Source of the DNA: an uncultured Chitinophaga sp.
GTDB lineage: Bacteria > Bacteroidota > Bacteroidia > UKL13-3
Assembly: GCA_964603255.1 (NCBI GenBank)
Contig: CAZRVA010000004.1
Span: 3,532-58,688, forward strand
Direction: 5' to 3'
DNA: 55,157 bases
The notes below the pieces were generated by a model. That model was not told where the DNA came from and searched no databases. It worked only from the letters and a program-made list of their open reading frames with translations. Made by a program: the position numbers and the translations under genes. Below, one piece after another: positions 4,220-51,989 of this stretch; position 1 is the first letter of the stretch; each line of letters begins with the position of its first letter.

Positions 4220-7200
4220 ATGAAGAAACTTTTTTTATTGCTGCTCAGTACTATTTTGATTTCTGGTGTAAATTCTCAAAACCTTAAATTAGATAAACTT
4301 TGGTGGCAACCCAACGGACCTATTAATGCCATTGTTAAAGATACTGCAAAAAATATTGTTTACGTTGGGGGGGCTTTCAGGAGTATAGGTCCTATTGAAC
4401 CTTTTGGTGCGCAAATAGATACCACAACAGGACAGCCAGATTTCGCATTTGCCAACCCTAATGGAACAGTAAATGCTTCAGAGCCTGATGGAAATGGGGG
4501 CTGGTATGTAGGTGGTGAGTTTACCATGGTTGGTGATAGTGTTCGTAACCGAATTGCTCACATAACAAGCAAAGGAGAAGTCAGTTCTCTATTTGGTGCG
4601 GCCGGATTTGATGGTTCTGTTGCATCATTAAAAATAAATGATTCCATATTGTATGCAGGAGGAAATTTCACGGGTGTAGGTCAATTCAAAAGATATGGTG
4701 CCGCTCTCAACACAGCAGATGAAAAGGTTTTTGGTGAATTTCCTGAACCTAATGGAGGTATTAATGTTGCTACACCAGACGGAACCGGTGGTTGGTATAT
4801 AGGTGGTGCTTTTACCATGGTTGGTGATAGTGCTCGCAGATACATGGCCCACATTAATAACCTTGGAAAGGTAACCGATTGGAATCCAAGCCCAAACAAT
4901 ATGGTTCACGCAATTGCAATTTCAGGCAAAACTATTTATGCAGGGGGAATTTTTAGCTCAATTGGAGGGCAAGACAGAGGTAGAATTGCGGCTTTAGATG
5001 CCACAACAGGACTTGCAACCACATGGAATAAACATGTAACTGGTGCTGCTGTTTATTCAATTGCTATTTCTGGAGATATTGTGTATGTTGGTGGTGATTT
5101 TACTTATTTTGGAGGGCAAGCAAGAAATAGGATTGCATCTTTTGATGCTAAAACAGGACTTGTAACTTTATGGAATCCAAATGCAAACAACAGGGTTCAC
5201 TCAATTGTAGTTTCAGGTGATACAGTTTATGCAGGTGGTCTTTTCACATCAATTGGTGGACAAAGCCGGAATTACATAGCTGCAATAGGAGCTTCTACTG
5301 GCTTTGCAACAACTTGGAATCCAATTGCAAATAGTGAGATTCGCTCAATTGCTGTTTCAGGTGCTACGGTTTATGCAGGAGGTGGATTCACTTCAATTGG
5401 AGGACAAACTAGGAATTACATTGCCGCTTTAGATGCTACAACAGGGCTTGCTACTAATTGGAATCCAAATGCAAATAATCCAGTTTACTCAATTGCCATG
5501 TCAGACACAACAGTATATGTAGGAGGTGCTTTCACTGCAATTGGTGGGCAATATAGGAATTACATTGCCGCTTTAGATACTATTTCAGGTCTTGTAACAT
5601 CATGGAAGACTCATGCAAATGGTACTGTGTACTCAATTGCTGTTGCAGGCGATACAGTCTATGTTGGTGGAGGTTTTACTTCAATTGGAGGGCAAACAAG
5701 AAATAAAATTGCCGCTTTAAATACTTCTACCGGTCTACCAACTGCTTGGAACCCAAATGCAAATAATACGGTTGTTTCAATTGCTATTTTAGGAACTACA
5801 GTCTACGCGGGAGGTTATTTCACATCAATTGGAGGGCAAACAAGAAATAGACTTGCGGCATTAGATGCAACTACTGGACTCACAACTAACTGGAATCCAA
5901 ACGCAAATGACAATGTTTACTCAATGACGATATCAGGAACTACAGTCTATGCGGGAGGTTATTTTACGTCAGTTGGTGGGCAAAACAGGAATTACATTGC
6001 CGCTTTAGATGCTACTACAGGATTTGCGACAAGTTGGAATCCCAATGCTAGTTCTAGGGTTATATCAATCGCAGTTTCAGGAAATACTGTATATGCCGGA
6101 GGAAATTTCTCTACTATTGGAGGCCAAACAAGAAAAAATATCGCAGCTTTAGATGCAACAACAGGTCTTGCAACTGCTTGGGATCCATATGCAGATAATT
6201 GGGTTCACCAAATTGTAGCTTCAGGAAATAGAGTATATGTTGGGGGTGATTTCGCATTAATTGGAGGACAACCTAGAAATAACATTGCTGCACTAGATGC
6301 CACAACTGGACTTGCCACAACGTGGAATCCAGTTGTAAGCTCTCAGGTTTTATCAATTGCTATTTCAGGCACTAAATTATATGTTGGAGGTAAATTTACT
6401 TCAATTGGTGGACAAACTAGAAATAGAATTGCAGCATTAGATGCTACAACTGGGCTTCCAACTAATTGGGATCCAAATGCAAGTTATGACGTTACATCAA
6501 TTGCTATTTCAGGCGATACAGTATATGTTGGTGGAGCTTTTACATCAATTGGAGGGCAAACAAGAAATAGAATTGCTGCATTAGATGCCACAACCGGGCT
6601 CGCTACTTCTTGGAACCCAAATGTAAGTGGGACTGTTGGTCCAATTGTTGTTTCTGGTGCTACTGTTTATGTTGGGGGGGCATTCGCATCAATTGGAGGG
6701 CAAATCCGAAATAAAATTGCAGCTTTAGATGTAACAACAGGACTTGCTACTAACTGGAATCCTAATGCAAATGGTAATGTTGGCTCAATTGCTGTTTCAG
6801 GTACTACAGTTTATGTAGGCGGAAGTTTTACTTCAATTGGCGGGCAACCTAGAAATAGAATTGCAGCATTAGACGCTACAACTGGGTTTGCAAATTCTTG
6901 GAATCCAAATGCAAACGGTTCAACTAGTTCAATTGTTGTTTCAGGTACAACTGTTTATGTAGGCGGAGGTTTTACTTCAATTGGCGGGCAATCAAGAAAT
7001 AACATTGCTGCATTAGATGCTACAACTGGGTTTGCAAATTCATGGAATCCAAATGCAAACGGTTCTATTGGTTCAATTGCTATTTCAGGCACTACAGTTT
7101 ATGCTGGAGGTGGGTTTACTTCAATTGGCGGGCAATCAAGAAACAACATTGCTGCATTAGATGCCACAACAGGATTTGCAACTACTTGGAATCCGAAGCA

Positions 7201-8098
7201 AAAAACTACTGCCATTTACCCTGTTGCGGTTTCAGAAGATACAGTATATGCCGGTGGGAGTATTACAATTGATGCGGAATTCAGAGCAAGTTTTAATGTT
7301 TGGATACCCTGCCATTCAAACGCTGGTTCTGCAAGTGTAACCGCGTGTGATTCGTACACTTGGTCTGCGAACAATACAAACTACAAAACAAGCGGAGTTT
7401 ATACCGCAAAACTCACAAATATTGAAGGTTGTGATTCAATAGCAACATTAAATTTAACTATTAACACAGTAGATACCTCTTATGCAAGTGTAACTGCTTG
7501 TGATTCGTATACATGGTCTGCGGACAACACAAACTACAAATCAAGTGGAATTTACACCGCAAAACTCACAAATGTTGAAGGTTGTGATTCGGTAGTAACA
7601 TTAAATTTAACCATTAACACAGTAGATACCTCTGTGACAAAATCTAATAATACCTTAACTGCCAGTGCAAATCAAGCCAGTTATCAATGGGTAAATTGCA
7701 ATAATGCTTATTCCAAAATTCCGGGAGAAACATCTCAATCATTTGTACCCTCATCAAATGGTAGTTATGCTGTAATAGTTACGAAAAATGGCTGTACAGA
7801 CACATCAAGCTGTTACAACATTACCAGTGTAGGTAATACTGAAGTAGCCGAGGTTGATTTAGGTATAAGTATTTTTCCAAACCCAACTGAAGGATTATTT
7901 ACGATAGCGCTTTTATCTAAAATAGATGTTATAATTTCAAACGTTGAAATTTTTAACATCCTAGGAGAAAAGGTATACACCAACACGCTAAAAGATGAAA
8001 AAACAACAATTGATTTAAGTAAACTAACAAAAGGAATTTATTTAATCCAAATAAAATCAGTTAATAAAGCCATAAATAAAAAAATTGTAATTCAATAG
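4220..8098 (+). CDS. T9SS type A sorting domain protein with tandem 48-aa beta-propeller-like repeats
   Basis: Signal peptide MKKLFLLLL...; 16 tandem WNPNAN..V.SIAVSG.TVY.GG.FTSIGGQ.RN.IAALDATTG repeats; two CDSYTW...GCDS repeats; C-terminal IFPNPT...GIYLIQI...KKIVIQ (T9SS CTD). Confidence 0.9.
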   Translation: MKKLFLLLLSTILISGVNSQNLKLDKLWWQPNGPINAIVKDTAKNIVYVGGAFRSIGPIEPFGAQIDTTTGQPDFAFANPNGTVNASEPDGNGGWYVGGEFTMVGDSVRNRIAHITSKGEVSSLFGAAGFDGSVASLKINDSILYAGGNFTGVGQFKRYGAALNTADEKVFGEFPEPNGGINVATPDGTGGWYIGGAFTMVGDSARRYMAHINNLGKVTDWNPSPNNMVHAIAISGKTIYAGGIFSSIGGQDRGRIAALDATTGLATTWNKHVTGAAVYSIAISGDIVYVGGDFTYFGGQARNRIASFDAKTGLVTLWNPNANNRVHSIVVSGDTVYAGGLFTSIGGQSRNYIAAIGASTGFATTWNPIANSEIRSIAVSGATVYAGGGFTSIGGQTRNYIAALDATTGLATNWNPNANNPVYSIAMSDTTVYVGGAFTAIGGQYRNYIAALDTISGLVTSWKTHANGTVYSIAVAGDTVYVGGGFTSIGGQTRNKIAALNTSTGLPTAWNPNANNTVVSIAILGTTVYAGGYFTSIGGQTRNRLAALDATTGLTTNWNPNANDNVYSMTISGTTVYAGGYFTSVGGQNRNYIAALDATTGFATSWNPNASSRVISIAVSGNTVYAGGNFSTIGGQTRKNIAALDATTGLATAWDPYADNWVHQIVASGNRVYVGGDFALIGGQPRNNIAALDATTGLATTWNPVVSSQVLSIAISGTKLYVGGKFTSIGGQTRNRIAALDATTGLPTNWDPNASYDVTSIAISGDTVYVGGAFTSIGGQTRNRIAALDATTGLATSWNPNVSGTVGPIVVSGATVYVGGAFASIGGQIRNKIAALDVTTGLATNWNPNANGNVGSIAVSGTTVYVGGSFTSIGGQPRNRIAALDATTGFANSWNPNANGSTSSIVVSGTTVYVGGGFTSIGGQSRNNIAALDATTGFANSWNPNANGSIGSIAISGTTVYAGGGFTSIGGQSRNNIAALDATTGFATTWNPKQKTTAIYPVAVSEDTVYAGGSITIDAEFRASFNVWIPCHSNAGSASVTACDSYTWSANNTNYKTSGVYTAKLTNIEGCDSIATLNLTINTVDTSYASVTACDSYTWSADNTNYKSSGIYTAKLTNVEGCDSVVTLNLTINTVDTSVTKSNNTLTASANQASYQWVNCNNAYSKIPGETSQSFVPSSNGSYAVIVTKNGCTDTSSCYNITSVGNTEVAEVDLGISIFPNPTEGLFTIALLSKIDVIISNVEIFNILGEKVYTNTLKDEKTTIDLSKLTKGIYLIQIKSVNKAINKKIVIQ
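4880..7186 (+). repeat. 16 tandem intragenic 144-bp repeats (one is 147 bp)
   Basis: Trp codons starting the repeats were located at 4880 ... 6899, 7043, 7187; 7187-4880 = 16x144+3. Confidence 0.92.
7331..7633 (+). repeat. Two near-identical 150-bp direct repeats (7331-7480, 7484-7633)
   Basis: Both encode ASVTACDSYTWSA.NTNYK.SG.YTAKLTN.EGCDS..TLNLTINTVDTS. Confidence 0.9.
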
Positions 8099-26297: not shown

Positions 26298-27233
26298 TTA
26301 AAGGTTAAAATACTTCTCGTTAAACAACTTTTCCTGAGCATTTAAACCCGCTACAAACTTTTGATGCGCTATTGTGCCTTCATGCATAATACGATGCTTT
26401 TTCATTGCGCCAAGTGCTTTTGCATCCAACACAAATTGTTGGGTAACCTCATCAAAACAACTATTTACCAATTTTTGCCAAACGTAATTTACAGCTTGCT
26501 TGTTGGGATGAATTAAATCGCTATCGTAAAAACGATAATCACGTAACTCGTCAATTACTATTTCGTAAGCAGGAAAATAATAGGCGTTGGGTTGATGGTT
26601 ACTTAACTCATAAACGGCCAGCAATAAAATGCCTTTACTAACATTATTTTCAAATAAACCATCTTTGGTATGCCTTACCGGACTTACAGTAAATACAAAC
26701 TGAACGTGAGGTAAACTGCTGATAACTTCTTTCCATGCATCAACTATTTCAGTTACACTCAATAGTCTTTTATTAAAATGTTGTTGCGGATATTTATGGC
26801 AGTTGGCTACTATAAAACCAGGTTTATCTTTTAACTCATACACATATGCAGAACCCAATGTTACATAAACAATAACCTGGGGTTGATGAATAAATTGGTG
26901 TGCTTGTTTTAGTGTAGCATTGATGTGTTGCAGAGCATCGCTTTTATTGGTTGAATTAAACGAAGAATGATGAAGCCAGGTATGGTATAATTCATTGTAC
27001 AAGTGCAAATCATTTTCATTGTATGGTATGCCCTCGCCTATTTGCTTTATATGTTGTGCAATACTAATGGGATTATAAACAACACCATTGGGTTGAGAAA
27101 AAACATTAAACTGATGTTCGGTAAGTAAATCACCAATATTATCAGCAAAACAAGAGCCTGTTAGCAACATAGGTTGTTTGTAGTTAAACCTTTGGTTAGG
27201 TGATTTAGGTGTAAACTTTATTGTAAAATCCAT
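26298..27233 (-). CDS. GSCFA domain protein
   Basis: GSCFADNIG, TLGSAYVY, TVSPVRH, YFPAYEI..DELRDYRFY..D..HP. Confidence 0.92.
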   Translation of the reverse strand: MDFTIKFTPKSPNQRFNYKQPMLLTGSCFADNIGDLLTEHQFNVFSQPNGVVYNPISIAQHIKQIGEGIPYNENDLHLYNELYHTWLHHSSFNSTNKSDALQHINATLKQAHQFIHQPQVIVYVTLGSAYVYELKDKPGFIVANCHKYPQQHFNKRLLSVTEIVDAWKEVISSLPHVQFVFTVSPVRHTKDGLFENNVSKGILLLAVYELSNHQPNAYYFPAYEIVIDELRDYRFYDSDLIHPNKQAVNYVWQKLVNSCFDEVTQQFVLDAKALGAMKKHRIMHEGTIAHQKFVAGLNAQEKLFNEKYFNL

Positions 27234-27293
27234 CGCCTGCAAGTTAACTATTTGCAACAATCAAAAAATACGGTTTCGTGTTGATGGCACATT

Positions 27294-27728
27294 CAACCCT
27301 TTCAGGGTTGGTCACTGTCATTCATCATTATTGCCCACGAATTGTATTCGTGGCTATTCACATTCAACCCATTTAGGGTTGCTTTGTCCTTGTTCTCCTT
27401 ATTCATCCACGAATTGCATTCGTGGCTATTCACGTTAAACCCTTTCAGGGTTGGTTCATCGTCTTCCATCATCATCCACGAATTGCATTCGCGGCTATTC
27501 ACGTTCAACCCTTTTAGGGTTGGTTCATCGTCTTCTATCATCATCCACGAATTGCATTCGCGGCTGTTTACATTCAATCCTTTTAAGGTTGGTTCATCGT
27601 CCTCCATCATCATCCACGAATTACATTCGCGGCTATTCATGTTCAACCCTTTTAGGGTTGGTACATTGTCTTTCACCATTTACCACGAATTACATTCGCG
27701 GATATTCACGTTCAACCCTTTCAGGTTG
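27294..27728. repeat. Tandem array of a 47-bp two-hairpin REP-like unit (7 A hairpins, 6 B hairpins, period 69-72 bp)
   Basis: Hairpin A CAACCCTTTCAGGGTTG starts at 27294, 27365, 27437, 27506, 27575, 27644, 27713; hairpin B is CCACGAATTGCATTCG(C/T)GG; linker CTATTCACGTT; 22-25 bp variable segments. Confidence 0.9.
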
Positions 27729-27790
27729 TCACAATCAACCCTCCCAATACAAAAAGCATTCTATAGTAAGAATATCTAAATCCCAAAGTA

Positions 27791-27869
27791 AAACCATAAA
27801 CCATAAACCATAAACATTGAACCACAAGCCCCAAACAAATCAACCCATCAACCAATAACTAATAACCAT
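27791..27869 (+). repeat. Low-complexity A/C tract with (AAACCAT)3 and degenerate copies
   Basis: AAACCAT x3 at 27791-27811, then degenerate AACCA/CAACC units. Confidence 0.6.
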
Positions 27870-27982
27870 GTACATATCATGTTTACAACTATTACAAACA
27901 AGAAACACTGCCTTTACAATTAATTTCGTTAATTGAAATATCATTAATCAACTACATCTCTTAACCTTCAATTACAACAGCC

Positions 27983-29317
27983 ATGGCCAGAAAAGTTTCA
28001 GACAAAAAAATCTTCGTTTTAGATACCTCAGTTATTTTATACGACCATAAATGCATCAACAATTTTCAAGAGCATGATGTAGCAATTCCTATAACGGTGC
28101 TTGAAGAATTGGATAATTTTAAAAAAGGAAACGACACCATAAACTACGAGGCTCGTGAGTTTATTCGCTACCTGGATAAGTTGTCTGGTGAATACACCTT
28201 AACCGAATGGATTCCGATTAACGGCAGAGGGCGCGGAAAATTACGTGTTCAGTTTAAAGAGAAAGCAAGTGTAGATGCGATGGTAGTTTTTGGCGACCGA
28301 AAAGCTGATCACAAAATACTAAATGCAGCCATGGCCATTAGCGAAGAGTACCCTTCGCGAAAAGTGGTTATGGTTACAAAAGATGTTAACCTCAGGCTCA
28401 AAGCAAAATCGTTAAACATTACTGCCGAGGATTACGAAACCGGTAAAATTAAAAACCTGGATACCCTTCATACCGGTATTTCAACCATAGATGGTGTTAA
28501 ACAATCTGTTATTGATTTGATATATGCAGATGGTTTTGTTAGCTACGATTTGTTGTTTAAAAAGAAACCTGCGGCCAACCATTACTTCGTTTTAAAAAAT
28601 AACAAAACAAGCGTGTTGTGTTACTACAACCATCAAAACGAAAGTATTGAGCGTATTGACAAACGCACTGCACACGGCATTAAACCACGTAATGCAGAAC
28701 AAACATTTGCTATGCATGCGGTACTTAATCCTAATGTGTCTTTAGTAAGTATACAAGGTGTGGCCGGTACCGGTAAAACACTTTTGGCACTTGCAGCTGC
28801 GCTTGAACAACGCCACAATTACCGCCAAATTTATTTAGCCAGACCAATAGTTCCGCTGGGCAATAAAGACATTGGTTATTTACCGGGTGATATTAAAAGT
28901 AAAATTAACCCATACATGGAACCACTCTGGGACAACTTAAAGTTGATTCAAAACCAATGGAAAGAAACCGATAAAGAATACCAGAAAATAACAGAGATGG
29001 TAAATCAAGAAAAGTTAGTGGTTTCTCCTTTGGCTTATATCAGAGGACGTAGCTTATCTAATATTTTATTCATTATTGATGAAGCGCAAAACCTCACCCC
29101 GCTTGAAGTTAAAACCATTATTACAAGAGCAGGCGAAGGCAGCAAAATTGTATTTACGGGTGATGTTTTTCAGATAGATACACCCTATTTGGATGCACAA
29201 TCTAATGGACTAAGTTATTTGATAGACCGCATTAGAGACAACCCAATTTATGCGCATATTACTCTTGAAAAAGGCGAAAGAAGTGAACTGGCCAATGTAG
29301 CCAACTTATTATTGTAA
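27983..29317 (+). CDS. PIN-PhoH (PhoH2/YlaK-like) protein
   Basis: N-terminal PIN domain (FVLDTSVIL, VLEELD, TKDVNLRLKA); PhoH ATPase (GVAGTGKT, YIRGRSL, IIDEAQN, GDVFQID). Confidence 0.95.
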   Translation: MARKVSDKKIFVLDTSVILYDHKCINNFQEHDVAIPITVLEELDNFKKGNDTINYEAREFIRYLDKLSGEYTLTEWIPINGRGRGKLRVQFKEKASVDAMVVFGDRKADHKILNAAMAISEEYPSRKVVMVTKDVNLRLKAKSLNITAEDYETGKIKNLDTLHTGISTIDGVKQSVIDLIYADGFVSYDLLFKKKPAANHYFVLKNNKTSVLCYYNHQNESIERIDKRTAHGIKPRNAEQTFAMHAVLNPNVSLVSIQGVAGTGKTLLALAAALEQRHNYRQIYLARPIVPLGNKDIGYLPGDIKSKINPYMEPLWDNLKLIQNQWKETDKEYQKITEMVNQEKLVVSPLAYIRGRSLSNILFIIDEAQNLTPLEVKTIITRAGEGSKIVFTGDVFQIDTPYLDAQSNGLSYLIDRIRDNPIYAHITLEKGERSELANVANLLL

Positions 29318-34496: not shown

Positions 34497-35498
34497 TTAA
34501 GCTTCCTCGTTTTGTTCTTTACGTAACACCACTACCCTGTTTGCCTTAATGGTTTTGTATGATTTAATTTCTTCAACCGCTTTATCTATGGCAATATTTA
34601 ACTCGTAACCCAACAACAAAATATAAGTATTAATATAAATGAGCAACATAATTACGATAAGCACACCAATTGATCCATATACTTTGTTGTAAGTATTAAA
34701 TTCGTTGATGTAAGCAGAAAAACCAAGTGTTGTAATTAATATGGAAACGCAAGAGAATACAGCACCGGGAGAAATAAATTTCCATTGTTTGTTGTGATTT
34801 GGTGCCATGTAAAATATCATGCTGATAAAAAATAACACCAAAACAGCCACAATTCCTATATTTAGCATCACCAATAACACAGGGGTTATTTTTGATGGGA
34901 AATAGGCCAGCTTATCCAAATACTTAATAGAGAAATTACCCACGGTTAATAAGCCAACTGCTATTAATAATGAAACGGAAACAATAACAGCTAGTATGAT
35001 GGCCACAATTCTTTTTTTCCAAAACGAACGCGTTTCTTTTTGTTTGCCGTATTTATTTAATGCATTCATTAACGATACAAATCCATTGGTACTAAAATAC
35101 ATGGCTGTTAAGAAACCTAACGACAATAAGCCTCCACGTTGGTTATTTAAAATGTCAACCAAAGTAGTTTGAGCCGCTTTGTATGCACTAGTTGGTAGCA
35201 ATTTTTCAAAAAACAACAATATGCTTTGGTGACTGTTACTGATGGGTATGTATGCTATTAACGTAAATATAAAAATGATGGAAGGAAACAATGCCAAAAA
35301 GAAGGTAAACGACAACGAAGTTGCTCTCAACTGCAAATCTCTTCTATCAACCCAACGGATAAAAAACTCAAGTACACTATACCAACTTATGCCTGCATAA
35401 CCCGGAAATTGTTTGCTTTGTGCAAATGCAATAAAACGCTTGGCCACTGAAGTACTTAGCAACTTGCGGGTTATTTTATTTGCTTTGGGTTGACGCAT
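34497..35498 (-). CDS. YihY/virulence factor BrkB family membrane protein
   Basis: ATSLSFTFFLALFP, FSTNGFVSLMNALN, YNKVYGSIGVLIVIMLLIY. Confidence 0.92.
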   Translation of the reverse strand: MRQPKANKITRKLLSTSVAKRFIAFAQSKQFPGYAGISWYSVLEFFIRWVDRRDLQLRATSLSFTFFLALFPSIIFIFTLIAYIPISNSHQSILLFFEKLLPTSAYKAAQTTLVDILNNQRGGLLSLGFLTAMYFSTNGFVSLMNALNKYGKQKETRSFWKKRIVAIILAVIVSVSLLIAVGLLTVGNFSIKYLDKLAYFPSKITPVLLVMLNIGIVAVLVLFFISMIFYMAPNHNKQWKFISPGAVFSCVSILITTLGFSAYINEFNTYNKVYGSIGVLIVIMLLIYINTYILLLGYELNIAIDKAVEEIKSYKTIKANRVVVLRKEQNEEA

Positions 35499-35560
35499 TG
35501 GTTGTTGGTTGATTGGTTGATTGGTTGATTGGTTGATTGGTTGATTGGTTGATTGGTTTA
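35498..35560. repeat. Octamer simple sequence repeat (TTGGTTGA)6 plus two partial units
   Basis: Six perfect copies at 35505-35552, flanked by TTGGTTG and TTGGTTTA; directly upstream of the yihY ATG. Confidence 0.92.
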
Positions 35561-44846: not shown

Positions 44847-44917
44847 ACGAAACCACAAACTATAAACCCCAAACTAAAAACCAATAACTATTCAACCAAT
44901 CAACCATACCAACAAGC
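44847..44917 (+). repeat. Low-complexity A/C tract (AAACCAC/AAACTAT/CAACCAAT units)
   Basis: Degenerate 7-8-mer units running up to the PIG-L start codon. Confidence 0.5.
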
Positions 44918-51319: not shown

Positions 51320-51578
51320 CGCATTTTTAAAGACAAAAAGTCTTAACTCAATAAAATTAGCCTAAGCAAAAAAGACATAATTTCCGATTTCATCAAAATC
51401 AAACCCCAAAAGGAGGAATAAACGGCATGGAGTGTTCAAGGAAATAGAGGGATGGTTCTCCCAAAATTTACGAAACAACACAGAAGGTAATGTGCAAAAT
51501 ATCTCTTACAGCATCCACGGAAAACCACAGAAAAAAATACTCAATAACAAGCTTGATAAAAGAAATCAGAGCAACATT

Positions 51579-51791
51579 CAACCCTTTCAGGGTTGCTTAT
51601 TGGTCTTTCAACACATCATCTCCGAATTACATTCGGAGCTATTCACATTTAACCTTTTCAGGTTTAATAACCAACAAAATATTTAGAACAACAAAAAAGT
51701 CCGTAGGACTTGAATATGAATAGCCTCGGGTGTAACCCGTGGCTGAAATAAGTTGAATAAATTAAAAACAACTCTGAAGGAGTTTAATGTG
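51579..51791. repeat. Back-to-back pair of the same two-hairpin REP-like element as at 27.3 kb
   Basis: A(51579-95)-spacer-B(51620-38)-linker-A(51650-66); 29-bp gap; inverted copy A(51696-712)-linker-B(51724-42)-spacer-A(51769-85). Confidence 0.85.
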
Positions 51792-51989
51792 TTTCTAAAC
51801 AGTATATTAAAATCACATTTGTAATATTCTTTTGTGGATTTTGGGTTTGAGAAAGCGATAGCTCCAGCATTTGAAGGAAACTAACTCGAAGAAGTACTGA
51901 TGATTTAAAAAAACAAATCTAAAGATCGTTCATCAAACAACAAATACCCCGAGCATTCTGGGCTGTGTACTGCACCTGCGGCCATTGCC

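Follow-up and report, generated by a model that had tools for sequence, protein, structure and literature searches.

Between a GSCFA-family gene and a PIN-PhoH gene lies a regular array of hairpins, which raises the question of whether the locus is a CRISPR array, a set of structured RNAs or an amplified DNA repeat. We addressed this question in the window, that is, the whole stretch of 55,157 nucleotides that was analyzed. A preliminary description made from its sequence had counted seven hairpin A and six hairpin B copies with a period of 69-72 bp, and both counts were reproduced on the forward strand at 27288-27731. Tandem Repeats Finder returned a single array (27288-27725, period 69, 6.3 copies, 82% matches, score 535), and repeat and pattern searches resolved six units with a hairpin A at both ends, the last hairpin A being degenerate. 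The 25-nt segments that carry hairpin A were located by repeat search and folded as hairpins in single-stranded DNA; the first copy is 27288-27312 (H1-type, TTCAACCC-TTTCA-GGGTTGG). The other six copies lie at 27359-27383, 27431-27455, 27500-27524, 27569-27593, 27638-27662 and 27707-27731 (+), which gives spacings of 71, 72, 69, 69, 69 and 69 bp along the array. Hairpin B (CCACGAATTNCATTCGYGG) is of the H2 type, with CCACGAAT-TGT-ATTCGTGG in the first copy (27335-27353, followed by the linker CTATTCA); copies 2 to 6 occupy 27407-27425, 27476-27494, 27545-27563, 27614-27632 and 27683-27701 (+), and copies 3 to 6 contain an A.C mismatch (ATTCGCGG). The hairpin-B pattern matched 12 times when both strands were searched, compared to 0.05 matches in shuffled sequence. 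Folded as single-stranded DNA, the array formed 13 hairpins with an energy of -63.1 kcal/mol (z = -8.4 versus shuffles).

The variable segments of units 3, 4 and 5 (27456-27475, 27525-27544 and 27594-27613 [+]; GTTCATCGTCTTCCATCATCAT, GTTCATCGTCTTCTATCATCAT and GTTCATCGTCCTCCATCATCAT) were near-identical, while those of units 1, 2 and 6 differed, as the preliminary description had noted. Repeats of 138 nt within the array shared 92% and 88% identity. Judged by the sequence, the near-identical segments of units 3 to 5 are the mark of a recent local duplication. The flanking genes lie outside the element: a GSCFA-family gene on the left (26298-27260 [-]; Pfam PF08885, E = 2e-82) and the PIN-PhoH gene on the right (27983-29317 [+]; PF13638 and PF02562). 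T9SS, BatA and GSCFA domains (Pfam) assign the host to Bacteroidota. Open reading frames that run through the array were rejected as spurious, having no Pfam match above threshold and being absent from strains that lack the array; they stay open since both period lengths, 69 and 72, are divisible by 3.

The regular alternation of structured repeats and ~24-nt variable segments gives the locus the appearance of a repeat-spacer array, and 47-bp repeats do occur in some Bacteroidota type II-C CRISPR arrays. The reading as a degenerate or orphan CRISPR locus (repeats of 47 bp, spacers of 22-25 bp) was, however, effectively refuted, in line with the earlier non-CRISPR classification; the likeness is one of appearance only. 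Three of the six "spacers" are near-identical, single and inverted-doublet copies of the unit are dispersed across genomes, and the best CRISPR repeat model reached only E = 8.8. Phage-matching spacers would have favored CRISPR, and none that was convincing turned up among 2.9 million viral contigs: the three unique spacers had no match, and a low-complexity spacer had one, which falls at the boundary of a gene in a viral contig and has unrelated flanking sequence. The repeat unit itself was absent from the viral contigs. The preliminary description had also listed neither cas nor tnpA genes in the window; consistent with this, we found no cas gene within ~5 kb on either side of the array and, by tblastn and motif scan, no Y1 transposase gene in the 55 kb.

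We then compared the site among ten contigs that encode exactly the PIN-PhoH protein of the window. In six of them, the spacer between the flanking genes measured 311 bp and contained one degenerate hairpin A. In L121, a spacer of 718 bp held three units plus an inverted variant unit, and in L122, a spacer of 809 bp held at least four units plus the inverted one; the window, with 722 bp, has six. Zero, three, four or more, and six units are thus found at the same site, and together with the near-identical central units, these strain differences support the local tandem amplification that had been proposed. The full and collapsed alleles differed by a whole number of A-to-A periods, with breakpoints inside hairpin A. 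Since the unit number differs among strains with an identical PIN-PhoH protein, the array is dispensable and recent, and its adjacency to PIN-PhoH, already suspected of being coincidental, is indeed so. Neither of the flanking genes, GSCFA or PIN-PhoH, requires the array. The search gave no clean pair of an empty and a filled site whose ends were defined, and the "empty" allele retains a hairpin-A remnant; plain recombination therefore explains the collapse as well as enzyme action does. Two further contigs, L119 and L125, encode the identical PIN-PhoH protein and carry hemerythrin/ScdA and globin genes upstream in place of GSCFA-LplA-TerC. Their divergence begins ~90 bp 5′ of the PIN-PhoH start (~27890 of the window), so that the spacer that hosts the array is also a breakpoint of rearrangement between strains.

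To follow the repeat beyond this site, species-representative genomes were scanned with a pattern of 22 specified bases taken from hairpin B (H2) and the linker. The pattern retrieved at least 117 stretches in dozens of Bacteroidota/FCB assemblies, so that the further copies anticipated outside the window do exist. Among the matches listed, single assemblies contained up to 8 loci, and the carriers were Bacteroidales, Saprospiraceae, Chitinophagales, Cytophagales (Emticicia), Prolixibacteraceae, Marinilabiliaceae, Kapaibacterium, Balneolaceae and one Neomarinimicrobiota MAG; 115 of 131 copies were intergenic. Many matches sat at contig ends, as expected because the repeat breaks assemblies. 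The window array thus belongs to a dispersed, intergenic repeat family of Bacteroidota/FCB genomes.

H1 was absent from the search pattern, yet it was present ~24 nt upstream in about 90% of the matches listed, and the pattern-matched loci contained a second A-like hairpin (H3) after the linker. The unit therefore comprises ~100 nt and three hairpins: H1 (7 bp, preceded by TTCAAC), ~24 variable nucleotides of constrained length, H2 (8 bp; consensus CCCCGAAT-TTC-ATTCGGGG with a conserved T-N-C loop), CTATTCA, two free bases, TT, and the H1-like H3. The period of 69-72 bp in the array results from the H3 of each unit doubling as the H1 of the next. Few positions were fixed in sequence: the T-N-C loop of H2, its closing T-A pair, the TT that precedes H3, and a TATT that adjoins H2 on its 3′ side (T 100%, A 100%, T 94%, T 89%) and corresponds to AATA at the 5′ foot of the hairpin when the opposite strand is read. 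At the hairpins of the repeat units, the canonical REP foot GT[AG]G was absent.

A covariance model of the unit (R1), which the preliminary description had proposed as a check, was built and recovered units both in the window and in other genomes. Within the array, it matched 27280-27384, 27423-27525, 27561-27663 and 27664-27729, and the nhmmer profile gave the pattern "++++++". Elsewhere in the 55 kb, R1 matched only at 51.6 kb, which makes two repeat loci in the window and bears out a copy that had been reported 24 kb away. A full unit with H1, variable segment, H2, linker and H3 lies at 51565-51669 (+) (83.6 bits); its H2 (CTCCGAAT..ATTCGGAG) differs by two compensatory base pairs from the array copies. 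An inverted partner with the variant H2 CCACGGGT..ACCCGAGG follows tail to tail at 51693-51799 (-) (67.8 bits), and the two form a doublet. No clean empty site was found for this doublet: five of five contigs with an identical Hsp20 carry it or end there.

R1 and the nhmmer profile were also used to determine how units are organized in 138 clusters among the matches listed. Head-to-head doublets made up 49 of the 138, tail-to-tail doublets (including the 51.6-kb pair) 10, and single units 68; the commonest arrangement of units was a ~200-bp inverted doublet with two H1 hairpins at its center. This refines the two-hairpin unit originally described: a complete unit consists of three hairpins and is mostly found in inverted doublets. 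Arrays of at least four units were limited to L103, L107 and the window, which is atypical as the sole such array in this sample lacking an adjacent Y1 gene (see below). In a further locus, L144, eight complete units are arranged head to tail at 1660-2497 with a 105-bp period, directly upstream of a Y1 gene. H3 and H1 are separate there and not shared, so that arrays exist in two registers, one of ~70 bp with a shared hairpin and one of ~105 bp with whole units.

Neither insertion marks nor known families were recognized around or within the units. The outer flanks beyond H3 of 104 copies displayed no target-site duplication or conserved motif and only a mild T enrichment. Solo H-type hairpins outside units were found 19 times, compared to ~15 in shuffles. 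This is chance level; a solo H hairpin as a preexisting insertion target was therefore rejected, and H1 belongs to the unit. Rfam yielded no relevant match in the window at gathering or permissive thresholds (best subthreshold value on the array, E = 0.036), and on 15 consensus-like loci its matches were limited to a group II intron and a tRNA that is unrelated. The literature search retrieved no paper with the unit sequence. In L032, group II intron domains D1-D4 (RF02012, 62 bits) lie at 2018-2148, ~300 bp from a hairpin doublet; this single case may be a coincidence. Six Saprospiraceae MAG loci (L018, L026, L030, L074, L109 and L117) share ~20 nt (TTTAGAGTGCCAAAGTAGAA) after H3, which suggests either that the unit is part of a larger composite repeat or that insertion in this lineage favors such a context.

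The preliminary description had further suggested that the array may be transcribed from the divergent intergenic region as a structured RNA connected to PIN-PhoH. On such a reading, the units would be genes or processed modules of a noncoding RNA, or a cis-regulatory leader of PIN-PhoH. Several features would fit such RNAs: the three hairpins covary strongly, the array fold has the low z score given above, about half of the H3 copies are followed by a terminator-like T-rich sequence, and the array points in the same direction as PIN-PhoH. In 82 nonredundant units, 91% of the cells paired, with 182 double changes versus 64 in shuffles, and sliding the partner by one column halved the pairing. 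Since the H2 core was fixed by the search pattern, covariation was recounted on 83 units picked via a neighboring Y1 protein. In this independent set, 94.3% of the cells paired (~50% when the partner was slid by one column), and compensatory changes were observed in 21 of 22 pairs, including seven of the eight H2 pairs. G-U pairs, however, made up only ~1% of the cells, and A-C cells, which correspond to G-U on the other strand, were no rarer (45 versus 30), so that neither strand is favored. The copies also lacked orientation bias relative to genes (upstream gene on the same or opposite strand, 48/42 among the matches listed). The scarcity of G-U pairs, the lack of strand preference and orientation bias and the intergenic location therefore speak for hairpins whose function lies at the DNA level, on either strand, more than at the RNA level. 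The inverted doublet as the usual form, the array-less strains with an identical PIN-PhoH protein and the lack of a matching Rfam family likewise speak against an RNA function. Assembled metatranscriptome contigs add a weak argument in the same direction: at this contig level, none spans the array, while PIN-PhoH is covered from 27967 on. Thus, we consider a role as RNA very unlikely, and the link to PIN-PhoH was not borne out. Most likely, the repeat acts as DNA, with hairpins extruded from single-stranded DNA. One metatranscriptome contig (run X25) matches 27967-28395 of the window exactly and begins 16 nt 5′ of the PIN-PhoH start codon, so that the 5′ leader may be short and the promoter may lie 3′ of the array.

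If the repeat acts as DNA, an enzyme that handles such hairpins might be encoded near its copies. A REP/BIME-like family maintained in trans by an HUH transposase had been put forward from the window alone, and a dispersed repeat that brackets a Y1 gene (PF01797) was indeed found in other genomes; the enzyme, however, is of subclass 1.2 and not a classical RAYT. A strict RAYT motif scan of the loci (HUH...YxxNP) gave no match, and a looser scan revealed the subclass-1.2 genes. It identified 148-aa open reading frames in L103 and L107 with the motifs DH[IL]H ... WQ ... YVKNQEAHH, both of which match Pfam Y1_Tnp (PF01797; E = 1e-20 and 7e-21). Each of the two genes has unit arrays on its flanks, with a 65-74-bp period and the architecture of the window array; the units in L107 have the opposite orientation to the usual gene-centered layout. 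Partial Y1 genes adjoining units were detected by tblastn in L041 and L063. An open reading frame between two doublets in L034 turned out to encode an unrelated outer-membrane-type protein.

The combination of DH[IL]H and Y---Q--HH is the signature of TnpA-Y1 subclass 1.2 (Quentin et al. 2018, PMC6006769). With an HUH motif DH[IL]H and a tyrosine motif YVKNQE-HH, the candidate partner is classified as an IS200-like Y1/HUH enzyme of subclass 1.2, not as a class-2 RAYT (YxxxNP). The protein family comprised more than 3,000 matches and was strongly conserved, with 70-82% identity across orders and with HUH histidines and a tyrosine that were invariant or nearly so; given these retained residues, the proteins are predicted to be catalytically intact. 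A profile search of the PDB returned ISDra2 and IS608 TnpA as the nearest structures, and the E. coli RAYT (4ER8) was unmatched at E ≤ 0.01. No TnpB partner was seen.

As an independent test, metagenome contigs were scanned with an alignment of the Y1 protein, and the resulting 80 loci were searched with R1. Where the Y1 protein shared 60% or more identity with the query, a (+) unit followed the stop codon in 18 of 18 loci, starting -5 to +69 bp from it, and a (-) unit preceded the start codon in 16 of 20, ending at most 124 bp from it; 15 of 20 had both. An HUH gene flanked by the same unit, which the preliminary description had named as something to look for, therefore exists, in other genomes. 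At 50-60% identity, a (+) unit after the stop codon was present in 16 of 20 loci and a (-) unit before the start codon in 11 of 20 (both in 10). Below 44% identity, the respective numbers were 6 and 3 of 30 (both in 2). In L133 and L138, the gene is packed between two H1 hairpins, with ~5-15 nt separating these from the start and stop codons, and the gene-less ~200-bp inverted doublets share the layout of the gene-carrying ones.

The Y1 relatives with ~40% identity were mostly missed by R1; on their flanks they carried inverted copies of another hairpin repeat, CGCTCC-GTA-GGAGCG with ..TGTTTATAG after it. The enzyme branches and the repeat families therefore appear to have diverged together, as in REP-RAYT. 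The loci concerned (L173-L207) look like a sister repeat-enzyme pair; examples are L174 (2417-2492 and 2955-3029) and L187 (83-217 and 756-827). Some of the sister-repeat loci also have conserved neighbor genes in common.

On this evidence, we consider it probable that the array represents BIME-like tandem amplification of a REP-type DNA repeat whose partner is the 148-aa subclass-1.2 Y1/HUH transposase. By analogy to IS608 and ISDra2 TnpA and to E. coli TnpA-REP, the enzyme would bind H2 and the TATT/AATA foot on single-stranded DNA and then cut and rejoin it, and such reactions could spread or maintain units in trans. H1 and H3, being near-identical direct repeats 69-72 bp apart, might in turn recombine, undergo slippage or be joined head to tail by the enzyme, and any of these events would add or remove whole 69-72-bp periods. 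Gain and loss of whole periods could then have led to the six-unit array described here and, in other strains, to a site reduced to one hairpin-A remnant.

Alternatively, the repeat could be an inert satellite, or a MITE moved by another enzyme, on which the Y1 protein does not act; the association would then reflect an insertion preference, or a Y1 gene that landed inside doublets. The catalytic action of the candidate enzyme is indeed proposed by analogy, the window array has no Y1 gene within 55 kb, and recombination between hairpin-A copies alone can explain the changes in unit number. However, the units abut the start and stop codons in fixed orientation at most loci, different branches of the Y1 protein are accompanied by different flanking repeats, and clustering of open reading frames from the 117 loci listed revealed no other recurrent gene near the units. 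Nor does an inert or otherwise mobilized repeat fit well with the lack of a target-site duplication or conserved outer flank and with solo H-type hairpins at chance level. We therefore regard an inert repeat as unlikely and the Y1 partnership as the better account of the family.

Hairpin repeats with a Y1 enzyme are already known as a kind of system. REP/REPIN-RAYT is the best-studied repeat family that persists over long times with a single-copy, host-maintained transposase, and it is known mainly from Proteobacteria, with class-2 RAYT enzymes. The family described here resembles these REPtrons (E. coli YafM, PDB 4ER8; Pseudomonas; PMC6006769, PMC3733652) in its dispersed, multicopy extragenic hairpins, its frequent inverted pairs and occasional tandem arrays (BIME-2-like) and its conserved tetranucleotide at the hairpin foot. 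It also shares with them a small Y1/HUH gene that lies between inverted copies of the repeat belonging to it (here in other genomes), a separate repeat family for each enzyme branch and nonautonomous copies that far outnumber the gene. In contrast to REPtrons, however, the enzyme is of the IS200-like subclass 1.2 (Y---Q--HH), TATT (AATA when the opposite strand is read) takes the place of GT[AG]G at the foot, and the unit is a three-hairpin composite of ~100 nt instead of one 20-40-nt palindrome. Moreover, the gene usually lies inside a single doublet, abutting two H1 hairpins, whereas the REPtron gene lies between separate REPINs. This enzyme subclass with a repeat, the composite unit, the non-GTAG foot and the gene-in-doublet layout were not found in PMC6006769 or in the literature searched.

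The IS200/IS605 elements (IS608, ISDra2 and their miniature derivatives) share the Y1/HUH fold family, hairpin-bearing ends and gene-less derivatives more numerous than the gene; their ends, however, are asymmetric hairpins on one strand, whereas inverted copies of a 100-nt unit are found here. A further likeness is to the BOX elements of Streptococcus pneumoniae, which have the structure boxA-(boxB)n-boxC and an internal module that is amplified variably between strains. Both are modular intergenic repeats with strain-variable tandem amplification of one internal module; they have no sequence relation, and a candidate enzyme is identified for the Bacteroidota repeat, whereas no cognate enzyme is known for BOX.

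A wider reading, which we put forward tentatively and hold to be slightly less than an even chance, is that the subclass-1.2 Y1 protein is the enzyme of a second, independently arisen and phylum-spanning REPIN-RAYT-like system, with the gene-less doublets and arrays as its nonautonomous offspring and with branches that codiversified. This reading would cover hundreds of ~200-bp gene-less doublets as well as the 69-72-bp arrays in Bacteroidota/FCB. In a published survey, subclass 1.2 was reported without REP sequences and without IS ends, as low-copy genes with divergent intragenomic copies (PMC6006769); the present data assign a cognate repeat to this subclass, and a specific candidate enzyme to a phylum-wide Bacteroidota repeat that is absent from Rfam and from the literature searched. 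A covariance model and a defined candidate DNA substrate (H2 and the TATT foot) are now at hand. Because the units break metagenome assemblies and mimic CRISPR arrays and small-RNA genes, recognizing them prevents misannotation, and the differences in unit number between strains at one site make the array a potential strain marker.

Other tandem repeats were observed in the window. Short A/C-rich heptamer or octamer repeats (units AAACCAT ×3.6, ATTGGTTG ×7.9 and AACCAATC ×3.6) are located at 27791-27868, just 3′ of the array, and at 35497-35558 and 44850-44906. Such repeats were also found upstream of PIN-PhoH in the array-less alleles, and they may be a repeat family of their own or may belong to a promoter or leader. 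Finally, a long coding tandem repeat with periods of 144, 288 and 432 bp (Tandem Repeats Finder scores up to 1742) is located at 4958-7271 within a large gene and is unrelated to the array.
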